Position numbers and translations under genes: made by a program. The notes beneath the pieces were generated by a model. It searched no databases and had not been told where the DNA came from. It worked only from the letters and a program-made list of their open reading frames with translations. Below, one piece after another: positions 18,940 to 27,935 of a stretch of 64,000 bases of DNA. Positions within the stretch are counted from its first letter, which is position 1; every line of letters starts with the position of its first letter. The stretch comes from Caulobacteraceae bacterium (GTDB lineage Bacteria > Pseudomonadota > Alphaproteobacteria > Caulobacterales > Caulobacteraceae). The DNA is taken from assembly GCA_019748095.1 (NCBI GenBank), contig JAIEQA010000008.1, positions 10,625 through 74,624 on the forward strand, in the 5' to 3' direction.

Positions 18940-20282
18940 TTGCCCGCAATGGCGACGGCGTCGATGAGCAGGGAGGGGGTGTTGAAACTGCCGCGGAACT
19001 CGAGGTCCGAACCGGGTATCAGTCGGGCCCAGAAGTCGAGGAGGTTGCCGGCGACGGTGATCTCACTGACGGGATAGGCGATCTGACCATTCTCGAACCA
19101 CAGGCCCGAGGCCCCGGCGGACCAGTCGCCGGTGTTGGAATTCAGCGAGGGGCCGAACATGCCGGTGACCAGCAGGCCCGTCCCGGCCTGGGCCATCAGT
19201 CCCGCCTGATCGGCGTCGCCGGGGGTCAGGTGCAGGTTGTGGGTCGAGACCCCGGCCGGGCCGGCAAGGCCGCGCGAGGCGTGGCCTGTGGTCTGCAGGC
19301 CCAGCTGATCGGCCGAGGCGCTGTTCAGCAGCCAGGTGGTCAGGACACCGTCGTCGATGATGGCGTGCCGCGCGACCGGCGAGCCTTCGTCGTCGAAGGG
19401 CACCGAGCCCAGGCCCCGGACGCGGAAGGGATCGTCGATCAGGCTGAGGCCCGCGGGCAGGATGCGGTCGCCCATCCGGGTCTTGAGGAAGGAGGTGCCG
19501 CGCGCGATCGAGGGGCCCGAGATGGCCCCCAGCAGGGGCGACAGGACCTGGGTCGCCATGCGGCGATCGAAGATGACCGGGGCGGTGGTCGAGGCGATCT
19601 TGCGGGGACCCAGCTTCTCGACTGCCCGGCGGCCGGCCTCGGCCCCGATGCCCTCGGGCCCCGGCAGGTCGGACAGCCAGCGGGTCGAGCGGCTTTCGCC
19701 GCCACGCTCCATGGCGCCCTCTTTTTCGGCGATGACCCCGACGCCCAGCGAGAAGCCCGTCGCCTGATAGGCTCCGTCGAAGCCTTCGGAGGTGACCAGA
19801 CGCCAGCGGCTGGATGAGGTCGAGGCATGGCCGCCTTCAGAGCGGGCGACGCCGGGGACCGCCAGGGCGACGGCCTCGGTCTCGCGGGCGGCCTGTTCCA
19901 GCTCGGCGGCGGTGCGCTCGGACGGGTCGAACAGCTCCAGATCCCGGAACGGGCCCCGGGCGAGGCGGTCGGCGGGGATCAGGGCGGCGTGGGGATCCTC
20001 GGGGGCGAGCCGGGCCATGGCCACGGCCCGCTCGACCAGACGGGCGCGGGTGGCGGGCGAGAGGTCGGAGGCCGAGACGGTCGCCTGCTGGCGGCCGACG
20101 AAGACCCGCAGGCTCAGATCGCGGCTCTCCTCGCGCTCCACATCCTCCAGCACGCCGTTGCGGACCCCGACGGACAGGGAGGCGCGTTCCGAGGTGACGG
20201 CCTCGGCCGCATCGGCCCCGGCGCGCAGGGCGGCGGCCACGATGTCGTTCAGGATGTCGGTGGGAGGAAGGCTGTCAGGCAT
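18936..20282 (-). CDS. pmbA: TldD/PmbA family metalloprotease (PmbA/TldE)
   Basis: Start reset to ATG 20282 (MPDSLPPTDILNDIVAAALRAGADAAEAV). The 448-aa length and the C-terminal GMFGPSLNSNTGDWSAGASGLWFENGQI..PVSEITVAGNL are typical of PmbA. Confidence 0.9.
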   Translation of the reverse strand: MPDSLPPTDILNDIVAAALRAGADAAEAVTSERASLSVGVRNGVLEDVEREESRDLSLRVFVGRQQATVSASDLSPATRARLVERAVAMARLAPEDPHAALIPADRLARGPFRDLELFDPSERTAAELEQAARETEAVALAVPGVARSEGGHASTSSSRWRLVTSEGFDGAYQATGFSLGVGVIAEKEGAMERGGESRSTRWLSDLPGPEGIGAEAGRRAVEKLGPRKIASTTAPVIFDRRMATQVLSPLLGAISGPSIARGTSFLKTRMGDRILPAGLSLIDDPFRVRGLGSVPFDDEGSPVARHAIIDDGVLTTWLLNSASADQLGLQTTGHASRGLAGPAGVSTHNLHLTPGDADQAGLMAQAGTGLLVTGMFGPSLNSNTGDWSAGASGLWFENGQIAYPVSEITVAGNLLDFWARLIPGSDLEFRGSFNTPSLLIDAVAIAGK

Positions 20283-20978
20283 GGCCCGATATGGCGGACC
20301 GGGGGGCGGGCCGCAACGGCGGGGCCATGCGGACCCGGAAAACTGTGTCCGGATGGTCCGGATCGCACCTCGGGACCGGTGTGCATCAAAGGGCCACCGG
20401 AAGGCATGGTGGGTAAGGCCAGGCGAATTTTTTGGTGTGCCGGACGAGCGCGTCCTGGGTTCAGGCCTCGGGTCGCTGTGCCGGCGGCACCGGTGTCCGG
20501 CGGACATCTGTGGCCGCAGTCGATTCGCTTTTTTGGGCCCCAAGCAGTTTCACGGTCCGACACATTCGAGACGTTTGTGTGAAAGGGTCATACGACCGAG
20601 CCTGACTCTCCTCTGCCCTTCGCTGGACGCAAAACGCAGGGGCTGCGACCTCGTCCACTTTTGCGGGGGAGGATCAGTCTGGCATGCCCGGCACACCGTC
20701 TGCTCCACCCTGTGCCGGTTCGGGACAACAGTGAAGCTTTGTGGGACATACTGGTCCGCCGCCTCCCCGGTTTCCGGCTCCGGAGCAGAGGTGCATGAAC
20801 CCATGAACGGGGAAGGAATCGACCTTTTCAGCCTCCGGCCGTGGGAAAACGGCCCGCCCGGATAGGTTGACGGCTGGATTCAGCGTTGTTCTGACACGTT
20901 GGTACGCCGCCAGGGCTCTTTCGGCCCCACCCTTGCACTGCCCTGCCTGCCCATCACGGGCATGTCAGGAGCCCCATA

Positions 20979-21593
20979 GTGAAGTCCATCTCTCTTCTTT
21001 CAGCCGTGGCGGCCCTCGCCCTCGTCGCCGGTGCTGCCGAGGCGCAAACGATCAACTCCGGCCAGCTTCTCCAGGGCAATGTGCGGGCCCAGCTGAACGC
21101 CGTGGTCAGCACCGTCCGGGCGGACCTCTCCGCCACTGCGGCTGCCATCGGCAACGGCTTTGGCGCGGACGGCACTACCGGGCCGGCGATCAACAACATC
21201 CAGCTTTTCTCGGGCAACGCCACGTCGATCCTGAACAGCGTCGTCCTGGACGTGAATGGAGACGTGAGCCAGCTCTCAACGGCTATCGCCAACCGGTCCA
21301 GCATAAGCACAGATGCCATGGAGGGCCGGATCAACAACCTGCAGAATGCAAACAACGGCCCGACAGCGATCCTGAACACGGCGGTCGAGAACGTAGGCGG
21401 CGACATGTCGGCGACCGCCGCTGCGATCAGCAATGCGGCGTCGATCAATTCGCGCCTCTCGATGGTGAACTCGGGCCAGAACAACGAGGCCGACGTCACC
21501 GCCTCCGTCGAGTCCCTCGTGCGCAATGTCGCGGGCAAGACGACGATCACGGCGGGTGCCATCGGCAACGTCGTCTCCGTCACCGGTTTCTGA
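20979..21593 (+). CDS. Secreted four-repeat curlin-like protein (first gene of the holdfast-anchor-like locus)
   Basis: GTG 20979 preceded by AGGAG 7 nt upstream. Signal peptide MKSISLLSAVAALALVAGAAEAQ. Four ~45-aa repeats, each ending in an A-I-(G/A/S)-N motif (AAAIGNGFG, STAIANRSS, AAAISNAAS, AGAIGNVVSVTGF). N/Q/S/T/A/G-rich, no Cys. Confidence 0.7.
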   Translation: MKSISLLSAVAALALVAGAAEAQTINSGQLLQGNVRAQLNAVVSTVRADLSATAAAIGNGFGADGTTGPAINNIQLFSGNATSILNSVVLDVNGDVSQLSTAIANRSSISTDAMEGRINNLQNANNGPTAILNTAVENVGGDMSATAAAISNAASINSRLSMVNSGQNNEADVTASVESLVRNVAGKTTITAGAIGNVVSVTGF

Positions 21594-21669
21594 TCCGTCG
21601 AGGAGCCGGGCGGTGTCCTGAAGGGCGCTGCGGTTTCCGCCTCAAAAGCCTCACCAGGACATATCCCCA

Positions 21670-22086
21670 ATGAAACGCTCTCTCTTCGCGGCCACGATTC
21701 TGGCCGGTCTCGCTCCCGCAAGTCTCGCCCTGGCCCAGTCCGTCTCAGGATCAGGTCTCGGGACCATGGAGTCCGGCTATGGGGGTGCGGGCCGGGTCGC
21801 CCACCAAGCCTACAATCCGAGCACACGCGACGCGAACGGCAACCGTCTGATCGTCAACGGCCGGATCATTGACCCGCGGGGGCAGGCGTTCTCGAGCTAT
21901 AGCAGCAGCGATGCCGGCACCGGTGCAGCCTACGCCCAGAGCGGAGCAGGCGGCGGCGGCACGACCACCAGCACAGCCATTGGCAATCTGCTGACGGTGC
22001 AGGTCACCGGCAGCAACAACGTCGTGGTCCTGAACGCACGCCAGACCAATAACGGGACCATCATCGCCCGGGCGAACGCCCAATGA
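21670..22086 (+). CDS. hfaA: HfaA-like holdfast anchor / curlin-repeat protein
   Basis: Signal peptide MKRSLFAATILAGLAPASLALAQ. C-terminal TSTAIGNLLTVQVTGSNNVVVLNARQTNNGTIIA resembles a CsgA/CsgB curlin repeat. Lies directly upstream of, and ATGA-coupled to, a CsgG-like gene. Symbol assigned by context, not by a search. Confidence 0.6.
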   Translation: MKRSLFAATILAGLAPASLALAQSVSGSGLGTMESGYGGAGRVAHQAYNPSTRDANGNRLIVNGRIIDPRGQAFSSYSSSDAGTGAAYAQSGAGGGGTTTSTAIGNLLTVQVTGSNNVVVLNARQTNNGTIIARANAQ

Positions 22087-22949
22087 GCCCGCGTCTGATC
22101 TTGCCGCTGGTCCTCGGATCCCTCGCGCTCGTGGCCGGTCCCGCCGGGGCCGATCCACGGGGCGGTGCGCCCGTCACGGCCAATCCGTCGTCCTATTCCC
22201 CCGCGCTGAGATGCCTGGCGGCCCGCGCCGGATGGTGGGACGGGGCGGCTCCACGTGTCGCCGTCGGCCGGATTACCGACATGACCGGCCGGAACGAGTT
22301 CTATAGCGGGACTCCCGTGCCCCAGGGCGCGTCGCTGTTCGCGATCACGGCGCTCAGACAGGCCGGAGTGCCGGTCGTTGAAAGGCTGGACAACACCGTC
22401 GCCGAGATCGAGCTGAACTATGCGCGCCAGCACCTGCTCTCCGACACGCCGGAGCAGGCGGGTCAGAGCGCGGACAATTTCCGTCCCATCCTGGCCGGCC
22501 AGATCGCGGGTTCGCGCTACTATATCGTCGGTGGGGTGACCGAGTTGAACTACAATATCGCGTCCTCGGGCCTTCAGCTCCAGGGCGGCCAGGCTGCGAA
22601 CGATGACAACAATGCCCTCGGGGGCGCGATCGGCCGGTCGCGCTTCGTTCTGAATGTCGCCGTCGATCTGCGGCTGGTCGATACCCGGTCCCAGGAAGTG
22701 GTCGAGACCGTCACGTTCCAGAAGCAGGTCGTCGGTACCGAGGCGGGGCTCAACGTCCGCGGAGTCAATCTGCGCGGGAGTGACGATACGGCGACCGGGC
22801 GATTGAACGGCGGGACGGGGGCCATGGAGCCGATCCAGTTCGCGGTTCGGTCCCTCGTCGAGCGCGGGGTCTTCGAGCTGGTGGCGGGGCTCCAGTCGGG
22901 CGACGCCCGCGGGGCCTGCCTGCCGATCGGTCCGGGAGCCCCGGCATGA
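22083..22949 (+). CDS. hfaB: CsgG/HfaB family secretion-pore protein, paralog 1 (signal peptide without a lipobox Cys)
   Basis: RVAVGRITDMTGRNEF..GASLFAITALRQAGVPVVERLD and GSRYYIVGGVTELNYNI fit the CsgG family core. N-terminus MSPRLILPLVLGSLALVAGPAGA has no Cys. Which paralog is the true HfaB orthologue is uncertain. Confidence 0.7.
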   Translation: MSPRLILPLVLGSLALVAGPAGADPRGGAPVTANPSSYSPALRCLAARAGWWDGAAPRVAVGRITDMTGRNEFYSGTPVPQGASLFAITALRQAGVPVVERLDNTVAEIELNYARQHLLSDTPEQAGQSADNFRPILAGQIAGSRYYIVGGVTELNYNIASSGLQLQGGQAANDDNNALGGAIGRSRFVLNVAVDLRLVDTRSQEVVETVTFQKQVVGTEAGLNVRGVNLRGSDDTATGRLNGGTGAMEPIQFAVRSLVERGVFELVAGLQSGDARGACLPIGPGAPA

Positions 22950-24088
22950 ACCGGTTCAGATCCGGGGTCGCCCTGGTCGCCGCGGCTGCAGTTCTCGGGG
23001 GCTGCGCCAGCACAGCCTATGATCCACAGACGGGCCTCTATGCCCGTCCGGGCGGCGGTGCCCCCGCCACCGATAACGAGACGCCCTATTCGGAGCCCCT
23101 GCGCTGTCTGGCCTCTGCGGCGAGCGAAGCTCAGCGTGTCGCTCCGCGACTGGCTGTGGGCGACATCGCGGACCTGACCGGACGCCGCGACCTTCAGACC
23201 GGCCGGATCGTCAGCCAGGGTGCAGCCCTGTTCGCGGTCACGGCCCTGACCCGGGCCGGAGTGCCGACCGTCGAGCGCCTGGATCCGGGCGTGTCCGAGA
23301 TCGAGCGACAGTACGCCCAGGCTCACCTGCTCTCGGATACACCGGAGCAGGCAGGCCAGAGCCGCGAGAATTTCCGGCCGGTCTATGCCGGAGAGATCGC
23401 CGGCTCGCGCTATTATGTCGTCGGAGGCGTGACCGAGCTGAACTATAATATCCGTTCGCGCGGTGTGGATCTCGCCGCCGGAGCCGTGCAGATCGTCGGG
23501 GCCAAGGGTGGCTTTACCGGCAGCGACTACGTCATGAACGTCGCCATCGACCTGCGCCTGATTGACACGATTTCCCAGGAGGTGGTCGCCACCGCCTCCT
23601 ACCAGAAGCAGATCGTCGGCCATGAGATTCGCGCCGGTGTGTTCAACTTCATGGGTGGGACCCTGTTTGATCTCACCGCCGGCGGCAGCGCCATGGAGCC
23701 GGTCCAGCTGGCTGTGCGGACCGCCGTCGAGCTTGGTCTCTATGATTTTGTGGCCGATCTCTACAGCCTGCCGCGCGACCGCTGTCTGGCGGGTGCTGAA
23801 GTCGGGGACCCCAGCCTGCTCGTTCGCCGCCTGACCGCGCCTCCCGCTGCGGTGGTAGCGCCCGAACCGCCTCCGGTCCTCGCAGCAGCGCCGCCCCCCG
23901 CCGCAGAGCTCCACGCTCCGCCGCCTCACGTCCATGCCCCGGCCCCGCGCCCCTATGCACTGCCCCCGCGGAACTACACCCCGTCCCCACAGGCCTACGA
24001 CCCTTCATCCTCGACATCGGCCCCGTCGGCACGTCCTCGCTCGGTGATCGAGCCCGGCGCCTGGCGGCTGCGCACGGGAGGGCGCTGA
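22946..24088 (+). CDS. CsgG/HfaB family lipoprotein, paralog 2, with a ~100-aa Pro-rich C-terminal extension
   Basis: Lipobox MNRFRSGVALVAAAAVLGGC. The core is clearly paralogous to the preceding gene (RLAVGDIADLTGRRD, HLLSDTPEQAGQS, GSRYYVVGGVTELNYNI, MEPVQLAVRT). The tail is PPAAVVAPEPPPVLAAAPPPAAELHAPPPHVHAPAPRPYALPPRNYTPSPQAYDP. ATGA overlap with paralog 1. Confidence 0.75.
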   Translation: MNRFRSGVALVAAAAVLGGCASTAYDPQTGLYARPGGGAPATDNETPYSEPLRCLASAASEAQRVAPRLAVGDIADLTGRRDLQTGRIVSQGAALFAVTALTRAGVPTVERLDPGVSEIERQYAQAHLLSDTPEQAGQSRENFRPVYAGEIAGSRYYVVGGVTELNYNIRSRGVDLAAGAVQIVGAKGGFTGSDYVMNVAIDLRLIDTISQEVVATASYQKQIVGHEIRAGVFNFMGGTLFDLTAGGSAMEPVQLAVRTAVELGLYDFVADLYSLPRDRCLAGAEVGDPSLLVRRLTAPPAAVVAPEPPPVLAAAPPPAAELHAPPPHVHAPAPRPYALPPRNYTPSPQAYDPSSSTSAPSARPRSVIEPGAWRLRTGGR

Positions 24089-24727: not shown

Positions 24728-26557
24728 TCAGTTCTCCCGGGCCACCGGATAGAGCCGGTAGCGGTCGTCGTGGAAGGGGGTGCGGGCGTAGAACCAGGCC
24801 AGACGCGCGTCGCCGTTGGCGGCGAAGGCGGGATCGGCGGCCAGCTTCGCCTCGAACTCGGCCTTGAGGGCAGGATCGGCGGCCATCATGGCCTCGGCGA
24901 GCGGGGCAATGGCGTAGCCCTCGATATACTCCACGCGGCTGAGGATCTCGGGGAACAGGCCCCAGGCGAAGAAGCTTTCATTCGACTGCGGCTCCAGCAG
25001 GAGGACGGCGATGTCGCCCAGCGGCTGGTCGGTCGGCACGCGCACCGAGCCGGGGGCGAAGGTCCAGTCGCGACGCTCGGGCGTCACGTCGGTGACGGTG
25101 GCCTGGACGTGGCCTTCATTGGCCCGGGTCGCCAGCGTCGGGTTGTTGAGACGCAGCATCTCTACGGCGACCGTGCGCGGGGCGTCGAGGGTTTCCAGGG
25201 TCAGGCCGTGCAGACGCAGGCGCTCGATCAGGTCGGACCGGTGGGCGGGGACCCAGTAGGCGGTCGGCCGGGCGAGGCTCAGGCCGGGGCGCGAGCCATA
25301 GTAGGGGACCTGCCACAGTTCGGGGTCCGGGCGGCCCAGCCAGCGGATCTCGGCGCGGCCGGAGGCGGGGCTGTCGTAGGTCTCGTACAGCACACCCTTG
25401 AAGGCGCGGGTCTGGTGCGGGGTCGGGTCGGGCTGGAAGTTGGCGGGGATTTCGGTGGGGCGCAGGGCCTGATCGGCGGTGATGGCGGCCCGCAGCGGCG
25501 CGGCCTGATCGGCCAGCAGCCGCAGGGAGGCCTCCATGAAGACATAGGTGCCCAGAACCCGCTGTTCATAGGGTTTCAGGCTGTGGTTCTCGATCAGGAC
25601 GGTGGGGATGTGGGCGGCCGCGCCCCAGCCGTTGGAGAATCGCTCGCCCAGACCGCCGTCACTGAGACCGGCCTTCGGGTTCTGGTCGTCCAGACCGAAG
25701 ACGAGGGGGCCGGGGATGTGGCCCTGATCCTCGAGTGCGGTGTTGATCGCCCGCTTGAAGACGTCGTCCAGCCAGGCCGAGGAGGCGGGCGAGCGGCTGT
25801 AGCTGTCGAACTCGCCGTTGAAGCCGAAGGTGATGTCGTACTGGTAGTCCATGCCGTCGGTGACATGGATGTCCAGATAGAGGTCGGGCTTCAGGGCGTT
25901 GATGAAGGTGCGCAGGACCCGCATCTCGGGCTGGTCCAGCTTGAGGAAGTCGCGGTTCAGGTTCTGGTTGGTGGCGGTGTTGCGCCAGCCCTGGATGCGG
26001 GGGCCGCGCTGGTTGGGACGGCTGTAGGGCGAGGCGCGCTCGTGGCCGTCGACCGACAGGATGGGGATCAGCACCAGATTGGCGCGGTCGATCAGCTCGC
26101 CCTTCGACCCGAAGGCGATGTCGCGCAGCAGCATCATGCCCGCGTCCTTGCCGTCGATCTCGCCGGGGTGGATGCCGGCCTGGGCCAGCAGGACCGGCTT
26201 GGCGGGATCCAAGGTCGCGCCGTCGCGTGAGGCAATGACGGCATAGATCGGGCGGCCCTCCGGCGAGGTACCGAACTGTTCGATGCGGATCAGGTCGGAG
26301 GCCGCGTCCAGCCGGTCGAACCAGGCGCGGGTGGCGGCATAGTCGGGGCTGAAATCGAGGGCGGGGTCACGCTCGAAATCGGTGACCCAGGGATTGGCGG
26401 CGTCGGCCAGCAGGGCCCGGCTGGCCCCGTCCCACGCCAGGGCGGGCGGCAGGAAGGGCTGGTCCCAGGGGGCGAGGTTGGAACGCGACTGGGACATGGC
26501 GGGACTCGAACTCAGGACAAGGGCGGCGAGGGCCGCAGAAAACAGGATGTGGCGCAT
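24728..26557 (-). CDS. Secreted M14 family zinc carboxypeptidase
   Basis: Start reset to ATG 26557 (MRHILFSAALAALVLSSSPAMSQ signal). Zinc motif GIHPGEIDGKDA (HxxE) and HVTDGMDYQYD. Listed ORF 24728..27043 is an in-frame read-through of the upstream gene region. Confidence 0.85.
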   Translation of the reverse strand: MRHILFSAALAALVLSSSPAMSQSRSNLAPWDQPFLPPALAWDGASRALLADAANPWVTDFERDPALDFSPDYAATRAWFDRLDAASDLIRIEQFGTSPEGRPIYAVIASRDGATLDPAKPVLLAQAGIHPGEIDGKDAGMMLLRDIAFGSKGELIDRANLVLIPILSVDGHERASPYSRPNQRGPRIQGWRNTATNQNLNRDFLKLDQPEMRVLRTFINALKPDLYLDIHVTDGMDYQYDITFGFNGEFDSYSRSPASSAWLDDVFKRAINTALEDQGHIPGPLVFGLDDQNPKAGLSDGGLGERFSNGWGAAAHIPTVLIENHSLKPYEQRVLGTYVFMEASLRLLADQAAPLRAAITADQALRPTEIPANFQPDPTPHQTRAFKGVLYETYDSPASGRAEIRWLGRPDPELWQVPYYGSRPGLSLARPTAYWVPAHRSDLIERLRLHGLTLETLDAPRTVAVEMLRLNNPTLATRANEGHVQATVTDVTPERRDWTFAPGSVRVPTDQPLGDIAVLLLEPQSNESFFAWGLFPEILSRVEYIEGYAIAPLAEAMMAADPALKAEFEAKLAADPAFAANGDARLAWFYARTPFHDDRYRLYPVAREN

Positions 26558-26604
26558 GGGTCTTTCGTCCTCTGCGCCGGTCGATCTGGCAAGCCCCGGC
26601 CGCA

Positions 26605-27222
26605 TCACAGCGAGGGAGACCAGGCCCCGGCGGCGAACAGCAGCCAGCCGGCCCGCACCATGTTCCACAGGGTGTAGGCCAGCACGACCAGCAGGGCGGC
26701 GATGACGATCCTCCGGGACGGAGCGAAGGCGGCCGTGGCCGTGCCGACAGCGAAGAGGACGACCCCGATCTGGAGCCTCGGCGTCCAGAAGGCGGCCCAG
26801 GCCGGGTCCACGAGCGCCAGCGCACCCAGCAGCAGCCAGACCATGGCGTTGGCGGCGAGGACACAGCCGAACACCACCCGGCGATGGGCCCAGAAATGGT
26901 CGTCGAGATCGATCCGTGTCTCCACGCCCTCGGCCGTCACGCGCGGGAAGGTGATGCTGGCGGCGACATAGAAGGTCGCGGCGATCATCAGGCCGATCAG
27001 CAGCAGCACCGGATTGAACGGCGCGTCGCGGAAGAACCGCCAAGCCTGGTTCCAGAAGGTGGCCAGGTCGATGGCCACGAACAGGGCCAGAAGTGGCGTC
27101 AGCCAGCCGAAGCGGACGCGGTGCCGCTCATGCAGCAGCCGGGCGAAGCCGCCGGTCAACTCGGCGACGGACAGGCCCAGCAGCAGGCCGTAGAAGCTGA
27201 AAAAGAACTCGAACGCGCTCAA
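26605..27222 (-). CDS. Hypothetical integral membrane protein (about 6 TM)
   Basis: 205-aa ORF with strongly hydrophobic segments throughout (MSAFEFFFSFYGLLLGLSVAEL...). No family recognised. Confidence 0.6.
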   Translation of the reverse strand: MSAFEFFFSFYGLLLGLSVAELTGGFARLLHERHRVRFGWLTPLLALFVAIDLATFWNQAWRFFRDAPFNPVLLLIGLMIAATFYVAASITFPRVTAEGVETRIDLDDHFWAHRRVVFGCVLAANAMVWLLLGALALVDPAWAAFWTPRLQIGVVLFAVGTATAAFAPSRRIVIAALLVVLAYTLWNMVRAGWLLFAAGAWSPSL

Positions 27223-27288: not shown

Positions 27289-27606
27289 TCACTCCTCGAA
27301 CATTTCGCGCAGGGTGGCGAGCAGACCGGTCAGATGTTGCGGCTGAAGTGCGCCGATGCGGCGAAGCATGCGTGAGCGATCCACGGAACGCATCTGGTCC
27401 GGCAGGAGGCGGCCCACCCGGCCCGCGAAGGTGATCGCCGGGCGATAGCGTGAAGGCAGGCTGCCGGTGGTCATGGGTACGATGACGTGGACCGGCAGGT
27501 GGCTCATGTCATCCGGGGAGACGACGACACACGGGCGGGTCTTGCGAAGCTCATGCCCGACGACCGGGTCGAGCCGGACCAGCCAGACGTCGCCGCGCCG
27601 GATCAT
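27289..27606 (-). CDS. mazF: Type II toxin-antitoxin system PemK/MazF family toxin
   Basis: MIRRGDVWLVRLDPVVGHELRKTRPCVVVSPDDM is the canonical MazF/PemK N-terminus. 105 aa. 4-nt overlap with the antitoxin gene. Confidence 0.9.
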   Translation of the reverse strand: MIRRGDVWLVRLDPVVGHELRKTRPCVVVSPDDMSHLPVHVIVPMTTGSLPSRYRPAITFAGRVGRLLPDQMRSVDRSRMLRRIGALQPQHLTGLLATLREMFEE

Positions 27607-27935
27607 TCTGGCCGGGTATCATTGACCGCCAGCGCAGCTTCCAGTTCGGCGATCTCTTCGTCGGTCCAGTCGGGGCCGAGAGCCTCGGGGTCTGTATCAC
27701 TGGTCAGATCAGCGTCCAGCCACTCCCGTTCCTCATCGGTCAGGCCGGCGGCGGCGATGCGTCTGGAGTCCTCGGCCCAACCCTCGCGCACGGCTCTCTT
27801 CGCCGGAACGATGGTGATCCTGCCGGGTTCATGAACGAACTCGACCGCCCCGCCTTCGCTGACGCCGAGCGCTGCGAGCGCTGCCTTCGGCAGGATCACC
27901 CCCGACGAGTTGCCGATCTTCCGGATCACGGGCAT
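27603..27935 (-). CDS. mazE: AbrB/MazE/SpoVT family antitoxin
   Basis: MPVIRKIGNSSGVILPKAALAALGV (swapped-hairpin SpoVT/AbrB motif) with an acidic C-terminal tail. Directly upstream of mazF. Confidence 0.85.
   Translation of the reverse strand: MPVIRKIGNSSGVILPKAALAALGVSEGGAVEFVHEPGRITIVPAKRAVREGWAEDSRRIAAAGLTDEEREWLDADLTSDTDPEALGPDWTDEEIAELEAALAVNDTRPE

Follow-up and report, generated by a model that had tools for sequence, protein, structure and literature searches.

A conserved tandem of lipidated and non-lipidated HfaB paralogs in the holdfast-anchor operon of a Brevundimonas-like Caulobacteraceae genome

Two HfaB paralogs in a holdfast-anchor cassette

The window analysed here, a 64,000-nucleotide (nt) stretch of Caulobacteraceae DNA (contig JAIEQA010000008.1, positions 10,625 to 74,624), contains a compact plus-strand cassette of four genes that is the holdfast-anchor (hfa) operon of a Brevundimonas-like genome of this family. 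It encodes, in order, a HfaD-like repeat protein, HfaA and two paralogs of HfaB, the first of which is non-lipidated (HfaB-S, or S) and the second a lipoprotein (HfaB-L, or L). The last three genes are chained, each to the one before, by 4-nt ATGA start/stop overlaps; hfaA lies directly upstream of hfaB-S, so that the HfaB genes adjoin hfaA.

20979..21593, + strand: short HfaD-like repeat protein, 204 residues, with signal peptide (NCBIfam HfaD NF037936, E 5.6e-5)
21670..22086, + strand: hfaA, 138 residues, curlin-like holdfast anchor protein with signal peptide (NCBIfam holdfast_HfaA NF037934)
22083..22949, + strand: hfaB-S, 288 residues, HfaB/CsgG-family paralog (NF037935, Pfam CsgG, AlphaFold2 model with Foldseek)
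22946..24088, + strand: hfaB-L, 380 residues, canonical lipoprotein HfaB (NF037935, Pfam CsgG, AlphaFold2 model with Foldseek)

Both paralogs pass the NCBIfam HfaB equivalog NF037935 (339.1 bits for S and 370.4 bits for L, cut-off 300) and match Pfam CsgG (PF03783; 48.1 and 54.4 bits respectively, gathering threshold 20.8). Both are already labelled HfaB in databases: S is 98% identical to a Brevundimonas metagenome-assembled genome (MAG) protein that NCBI names HfaB, and L is 100% identical to a Caulobacteraceae MAG protein of the same name (P0107), while an exact look-up of the window L protein found no contig. BLASTP aligns the two with 56% identity over 258 residues (E 9e-85), and the near-identical blocks include HLLSDTPEQAGQS..NFRP and AGSRYY.VGGVTELNYNI. 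The AlphaFold2 models of S (predicted local distance difference test, pLDDT, 72) and L (pLDDT 76.6) were compared with the Protein Data Bank (PDB) using Foldseek. CsgG was the best match in each case (6l7a_A, E 7.6e-13 for S; 4uv2_N, E 8.4e-12 for L), followed by HpaA, FlgT, the LPHT ring and PelC. These results bear out an initial annotation of this DNA, which had read the two plus-strand open reading frames (ORFs) as CsgG/HfaB paralogs with long shared blocks. It had also allowed for the fourth gene to belong to a HfaD family; the profile search returns HfaB and no NF037936 match for this gene, and the only HfaD match, at 22.6 bits, belongs to the 204-residue protein upstream.

The paralogs differ in signal type and share an invariant cysteine pair

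Signal types were assigned solely from lipobox regular expressions and the -3/-1 rule. The N-terminus of S reads MSPRLILPLVLGSLALVAGPAGA, followed after the cleavage site by DP, and its first cysteine is residue 44. The lipoprotein signal, with its lipobox cysteine, described for Caulobacter crescentus HfaB is therefore absent from S. An in-frame stop lies 10 codons upstream of the hfaB-S ATG (the stop-to-stop segment opens at 22053), and because the frame opens so shortly before the ATG an alternative start cannot supply a lipobox. L begins with MNRFRSGVALVAAAAVLGG-C20, which provides the lipobox LGGC with Ala at +2. The plain signal peptide of the first paralog and the lipobox of the second, both proposed in the initial annotation, hence stand, as do the conserved cysteines it had seen near both ends.

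22083-22151, + strand: hfaB-S signal peptide, residues 1-23, cleavage between AGA and D
22212-22214, + strand: hfaB-S conserved Cys44
22560..22643, + strand: hfaB-S hairpin 1 insert, residues 160-187 (28 residues), ASSGLQLQGGQAANDDNNALGGAIGRSR, equivalent of CsgG TM1
22743..22826, + strand: hfaB-S hairpin 2 insert, residues 221-248 (28 residues), AGLNVRGVNLRGSDDTATGRLNGGTGAM, equivalent of CsgG TM2
22917-22919, + strand: hfaB-S conserved Cys279
23003-23005, + strand: hfaB-L lipobox Cys20, followed by the linker motif DPQTGLYARPGG
23105-23107, + strand: hfaB-L conserved Cys54
23627..23695, + strand: hfaB-L hairpin 2 insert, residues 228-250, IRAGVFNFMGGTLFDLTAGGSAM, CsgG-TM2-like aromatic hairpin
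23783-23785, + strand: hfaB-L conserved Cys280
23786..24085, + strand: hfaB-L Pro/Ala-rich C-terminal tail, residues 281-380 (100 residues), from composition and low pLDDT
24032..24085, + strand: tail-end Trp motif, RPRSVIEPGAWRLRTGGR, family pattern [ILY]-[DE/L]-[PR]-x-x-W-R

The same division is seen among homologues. A strict lipobox is present in 1 of 80 S-type and 68 of 85 L-type sequences; a permissive rule recovers 80 of the 85, and the remaining L-type sequences are N-terminally truncated. Across the wider family a lipobox was found by pattern in 103 of 119 full-length representatives (at 50% identity), and inspection by eye reveals one in many of the remaining 16. S is thus the derived exception, since the wider HfaB family is almost entirely lipoprotein. 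Some S lineages retain the motif that follows the lipobox (S..DLYAKPFGDAPAT) minus the Cys, a sign of lipoprotein ancestry.

Within each class the cysteine pair is invariant (C44/C279 in the 80 S-type sequences, C54/C280 in the 85 L-type sequences), and its two members may form a disulfide. The invariant columns number 47 in S and 40 in L. At 85% conservation or more, the two classes have 76 alignment columns in common, and no class-diagnostic column (at least 85% conserved in each class but differing between them) was found. The constriction-loop motif D.TG..D..TG..[ST]QGA is identical in S and L, and the paralogs differ mainly at the N-terminus, in hairpin 2 and in the tail.

Hairpins and tail

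Hairpins equivalent to those of CsgG are predicted in both AlphaFold2 models, with pLDDT values of 55-77. In S, hairpin 1 is modelled as a long β-hairpin (strands 146-169 and 180-200, pLDDT 57-77). The hairpin inserts measure 25 and 23 residues in both S and L for 20 of 23 non-redundant pairs, and the L lengths are invariant among pairs. The window S protein carries a hairpin 1 insert 3 residues longer than most S and L, and a hairpin 2 insert 5 residues above the usual 23; lengthening of both S hairpins is confined to the lineage of the window. Its turns are Asp/Asn-rich (QAANDDNNAL in hairpin 1, RGSDDTATGR in hairpin 2) and would sit at the hairpin tips. Hairpin 1 has few aromatic residues in S and L alike. 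Hairpin 2, on the other hand, separates the classes, with 0.18±0.43 aromatic residues in S (none in the window protein) versus 2.56±1.06 in L: the L hairpin reads REIRAGVFDF..FDL, whereas that of S is Gly/Ser/Thr-rich. In a profile-versus-PDB alignment, L hairpin 2 of the window aligns with VQAGVFRFIDYQRLLEG of Escherichia coli CsgG.

The Pro/Ala-rich extension of the second paralog, put at about 100 residues in the initial annotation, contains 24 Pro and 19 Ala (counted on the 101 residues from Cys280), and residues 311-380 are modelled with a pLDDT of 47-65. L proteins of other lineages carry low-complexity tails of 40-160 residues. A regular expression for the terminal Trp motif matched within the last 40 residues of 49 of the 58 L tails that are at least 35 residues long, and three further tails contain DPATW or DTRTW. 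The motif takes the form IEPGAWR in the window, YLDRSRW in Caulobacter and Phenylobacterium, ADPSRW in the L-only hfaABD type and RYLRDSWRR in tail-bearing S-like proteins. The last of these belong to a lineage in which the arrangement is reversed: L is short (about 300 residues), and the non-lipidated S-like partner (420-454 residues) bears the tail with RYLRDSWRR (P0111, P0113, P0117 and P0118; locus L007, 2631-3893). It therefore looks as if each system carries the tail on one of the two partners. A tail that spans the periplasm, as had been suggested, is plausible.

One L-type subgroup (P0175, P0178 and P0238, Brevundimonas aurantiaca-type, named 'CsgG/HfaB family protein') has a Pro-rich insertion of ~40 residues in the core, between LLS.. 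and ..AGQIAGS, in addition to the C-terminal tail. In the tree P0180 falls with P0175; it and the S-type protein P0052 both lie on 57,581-bp contigs, which suggests that these two share a contig.

The S-L tandem is widespread and co-diverging

In protein searches, a short HfaB without lipobox was accompanied on many contigs by a long one with it. Loci were typed with class-specific hidden Markov models, and a metagenome scan contributed 67 of them. S is directly followed by L in 46 loci (the window included, with some duplicate contigs). The distribution over named species rests on five isolate or MAG loci, the remainder being metagenome contigs. The full order HfaD-like, HfaA, S, L recurs in Brevundimonas mediterranea, a Caulobacter sp. 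contig, Asticcacaulis excentricus (CP002395.1, 1,270,631-1,285,476), a Phenylobacterium MAG and B. subvibrioides (CP114542.1, 2,683,913-2,694,779). Against NF037935, scores of 388-408 bits were obtained for the HfaB partners of the Caulobacter, Asticcacaulis and Phenylobacterium loci. In 7 loci S lies at a contig end, and a few loci carry S and L in other arrangements (S<A<D<D<L>, A<D<L>S>, where A is HfaA and D is HfaD or HfaD-like). About 10 loci are L-only; some follow the classical hfaA-hfaB-hfaD order (A-L-D), for example in a Brevundimonas sp. with a 419-residue PF27277 HfaD, and others are ordered HfaD-like, HfaA, L (D-A-L). No locus with S but without L was found wherever the DNA allowed the check. 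A protein search seeded with a Caulobacter S-type sequence returned no C. crescentus or C. vibrioides S-type protein among the best 120 matches listed, which is suggestive only.

Neighbour-joining trees place an S clade apart from the L proteins, and the inner topologies of the two are mirrored. Partner distances in S and L are tightly correlated (Mantel r 0.953, permutation maximum 0.30) with a slope of 1.03, and the S-L distance inside a locus (0.85±0.07) exceeds the within-class distances of 0.56-0.58. Together these values indicate one duplication before the sampled paired lineages split, with equal rates since and no gene conversion. The duplication, which the initial annotation had wished to see dated by phylogeny, is hence older than the divergence of the sampled paired lineages; the pair, taken there as a local feature, is in fact an ancient and widespread tandem. 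The L-only lineages may have lost S or may predate the duplication.

A few sequences depart from this pattern. P0020 (341 residues) and P0064 (357 residues) combine an S-type N-terminus, identical to those of P0002 and P0018, with an L-like core or tail, and may be S/L recombinants, gene-fusing deletions or assembly chimeras. In L034 (FWPV01004485.1, 6004-7046) the L gene occupies two overlapping ORFs beside an intact S; this could be a frameshift, from sequencing error or in a disrupted L.

HfaD-like protein, HfaA and the surroundings of the cassette

The 204-residue protein encoded first in the cassette scores 22.6 bits against NF037936, below the cut-off of 100. It consists of four units of ~46 residues, delimited by eye from the translation, each closing with A-A-I-x-N and following the pattern ..LN..V..V.GD.SAT.AAI.N..SI... 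An AGGAG lies 9 nt upstream of its GTG start at 20979. We consider it a likely exported anchor subunit. Jackhmmer found homologues in about 40 loci, and those at the same cassette position in B. mediterranea, Caulobacter sp., A. excentricus and Phenylobacterium are all sub-threshold HfaD matches. Throughout the S+L cassettes this short form stands in for the long downstream HfaD; in B. mediterranea, an additional 328-residue HfaD-like gene lies convergently downstream of the cassette (L002, 10056-11042). HfaA scores 99.1 bits (E 2e-28) against NF037934, with a cut-off of 50, and a Logan contig (L001) encodes a protein identical to the window HfaA that is annotated as PF27294 HfaA.

The cassette is flanked by unrelated minus-strand housekeeping genes, the eight flanking genes including inositol monophosphatase, PmbA/TldD, MAPEG, M14 peptidase, MazEF and UbiD. 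A profile search of the four cassette and eight flanking genes gave no CsgE or CsgF match. A sigma-70 and terminator scan, together with simple CtrA and sigma-54 patterns, yielded nothing useful upstream. An overlapping MazF/PemK toxin (PF02452, E 1e-22) and MazE-type antitoxin (PF04014, E 2e-9) pair lies on the minus strand at 27289-27935, 3 kb downstream of the cassette. A hydrophobic ORF of 205 residues without Pfam match (26605-27222, - strand) overlaps the M14 peptidase ORF when that is read at full length (24728-27043); the true start of the peptidase probably lies further downstream. At 20001-24000 the GC skew falls close to 0 or slightly below it, compared with about +0.1 over most of the remaining window, consistent with a cassette on the opposite strand to its immediate neighbours. 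The G+C content of this interval is not unusual, so nothing suggests recent transfer.

Discussion

In the holdfast-anchor literature on C. crescentus and Hirschia baltica, HfaB is a single lipoprotein required for the surface placement of HfaA, HfaD and HfaE, and hfaA-hfaB-hfaD is conserved in the genomes analysed there. Loss of hfaB is more severe than the combined loss of hfaA, hfaD and hfaE, for a reason that is posed as an open question. Like the HfaB of these organisms, both window proteins pass the HfaB equivalog and adjoin hfaA, and L shares the lipoprotein signal, the CsgG-like core and the Trp-motif tail, the last also found in the L-only hfaABD-type protein P0209. Unlike the arrangement described there, with one HfaB and a long HfaD downstream, the window has two HfaB paralogs, one of them non-lipidated, and a short HfaD-like gene upstream, with no long hfaD in the cassette. 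Our search of the literature, directed at HfaB paralogs or a second HfaB and at Brevundimonas or Asticcacaulis holdfast anchor genes, was incomplete in coverage and found no description of the pair. The tandem is seemingly an undescribed form, with two paralogs, of a known system for secretion and anchoring, and seems to have escaped notice because only one hfaB is described in the model organisms.

Both models share the fold of E. coli CsgG (PDB 4uv3, 4uv2, 6l7a and 6si7; Foldseek E 1e-11 to 1e-13). L also resembles CsgG in its N-terminal lipid anchor and in hairpin 2, which aligns with TM2 (AGVFNF in L versus AGVFRF in CsgG, within YEVQAGVFRF). In contrast, sequence identity to CsgG is about 20%, the constriction loop is 4 residues shorter and without the Y-N-F residues, hairpin 1 is Gly/Ala/Ser-rich in both HfaB paralogs, and HfaB has an additional conserved Cys pair and Pro-rich tail. 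Unlike the curli system, the cassette has no csgE or csgF in or beside it. As a CsgG fold without lipid anchor, S is closest in kind to the CsgG(C1S) pre-pore (4uv2), the top structural hit for the L model and a strong one for the S model. That protein is an engineered mutant, whereas S is a natural, selected and conserved lineage. We know of no natural non-lipidated paralog partner of CsgG. FlgT, LPHT ring and PelC proteins have a related α/β fold and form rings under the outer membrane, but are distant in fold (E 1e-4 to 1e-5) and lack membrane hairpins; FlgT and PelC moreover serve other pathways, the flagellar H-ring and Pel polysaccharide export. FlgT, like S, has no lipid anchor.

The reading we favour, at a probability of roughly 0.55, is that S depends on L and works within the same secretion complex, as part of a mixed or stacked ring. 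One ancient duplication of a lipoprotein ancestor would have given both HfaB genes, which have been kept side by side since. L would be the canonical subunit, a Lol-sorted outer-membrane lipoprotein with CsgG-like membrane hairpins, whose long, flexible, Pro-rich and Trp-tipped tail probably tethers the channel to another envelope component. S would have given up the lipobox and the hairpin 2 aromatics, and retained the CsgG fold, the constriction-loop motif, the hairpin lengths and the Cys pair. A lipid anchor is needed for outer-membrane delivery of CsgG-type lipoproteins. With a Sec/signal peptidase I-type signal and no lipid anchor, S alone should therefore remain in the periplasm. Most likely produced in step with L through the 4-nt overlaps, S would associate physically with L in one complex, where it could supply subunits to a mixed ring or form a second ring that docks on that of L. 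HfaA and the HfaD-like repeat protein would pass through this complex to the surface, where both would anchor the holdfast. S is under constraint and keeps pace with L in its rate of change; it was always encoded together with L, often in translational coupling. A shared export complex is therefore the simplest mechanism.

As to the form of such a complex, the retained hairpin lengths favour S strands in the barrel, while the lost aromatics, like the odd symmetry of CsgG rings, speak for a ring or cap that is separate and docked. The stronger proposal, that S and L make up an obligate hetero-oligomeric CsgG-type channel (a single β-barrel or a two-tier ring) tethered by the Trp-tipped tail to a further envelope partner, is less likely than not. 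To our knowledge the CsgG family has so far been seen only as homo-nonamers, and such a channel would be its first natural heteromeric member.

Several observations weigh against placing S in a common complex with L, or against parts of that proposal. CsgG rings are nonamers, in which strict alternation of two subunits is impossible. The Gly/Ser/Thr-rich S hairpin 2, devoid of aromatics, may not insert in lipid, and in the window lineage (L009 and L012 included) the hairpins are unmatched, S having 28/28 and L 25/23 residues. D-A-L lineages do without S, which is thus not universally required, and in Caulobacter and Phenylobacterium the two genes are separated by gaps of 68-95 nt with no overlap. 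Bootstrap support with a distant CsgG root is modest (S monophyly 57%, L monophyly 43%; the L-only clade reaches 90%), and the E. coli CsgG root sequence was checked only against PDB alignment fragments, with which it agrees.

The initial annotation had raised, besides a hetero-oligomeric pore, the prospect of one pore per curlin-like substrate. In this case S and L would form two independent homo-oligomeric pores, for instance with S exporting the HfaD-like protein and L exporting HfaA. Both paralogs do retain the constriction-loop motif, two long hairpins and the CsgG fold, and two candidate substrates are encoded in the cassette. However, both substrate types are present in L-only loci (A-L-D and D-A-L), and S has no membrane route, lacking both the lipid anchor and the hairpin 2 aromatics; separate pores become less likely on these grounds. 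Furthermore, HfaA, HfaD and HfaE are all served by one HfaB in C. crescentus and H. baltica, no S was seen without L, and the title of PDB 4uv2 describes non-lipidated E. coli CsgG crystallised as a pre-pore form. This protein reportedly stays soluble. We regard two dedicated pores as unlikely, and a shared complex, be it a hetero-oligomeric pore or stacked rings, would fit better.

Somewhat less doubtful is an S ring that stays outside the membrane altogether, a soluble periplasmic adaptor that caps, gates or feeds the L channel, whereby a recycled channel subunit would take on a CsgE-like role. It would account for the missing lipobox and the Gly/Ser/Thr-rich hairpin 2 of S, and for a cassette without csgE or csgF-like gene in or next to it; the periplasmic or lipoprotein ring-formers FlgT, LPHT ring and PelC, of the same fold, are the next structural matches. 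Non-lipidated E. coli CsgG, moreover, makes a pre-pore oligomer (4uv2, with 16 chains per entry). Set against this, hairpin inserts of exactly 25 and 23 residues over most of the S clade are unexpected for free loops, and the S model, albeit of modest pLDDT, best matches membrane-bound forms of CsgG. We therefore hold this version possible but clearly less probable than an S that works within the L complex. A redundant or decaying duplicate without distinct role is highly improbable: although some lineages lack S (D-A-L and A-L-D loci), it is intact in all 46 tandem loci, has 47 invariant columns and a rate equal to that of L, and its retention dates back beyond the split of the sampled Caulobacteraceae lineages. 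This conservation excludes decay, and S as a pseudogene was rejected.

Our survey suggests that a second HfaB, without lipid anchor, is part of the hfa locus found most often in Caulobacteraceae genomes and freshwater metagenomes. The Trp-tipped tail and the Cys pair are two concrete features to bring to the open question of why hfaB loss is more severe than that of hfaA, hfaD and hfaE together. Co-assembly of S and L, if true, would mean that CsgG-type channels can be heteromeric and that a lipidated partner can carry a subunit to the outer membrane; it would bear on channel targeting and gating and may interest groups engineering CsgG as a nanopore.

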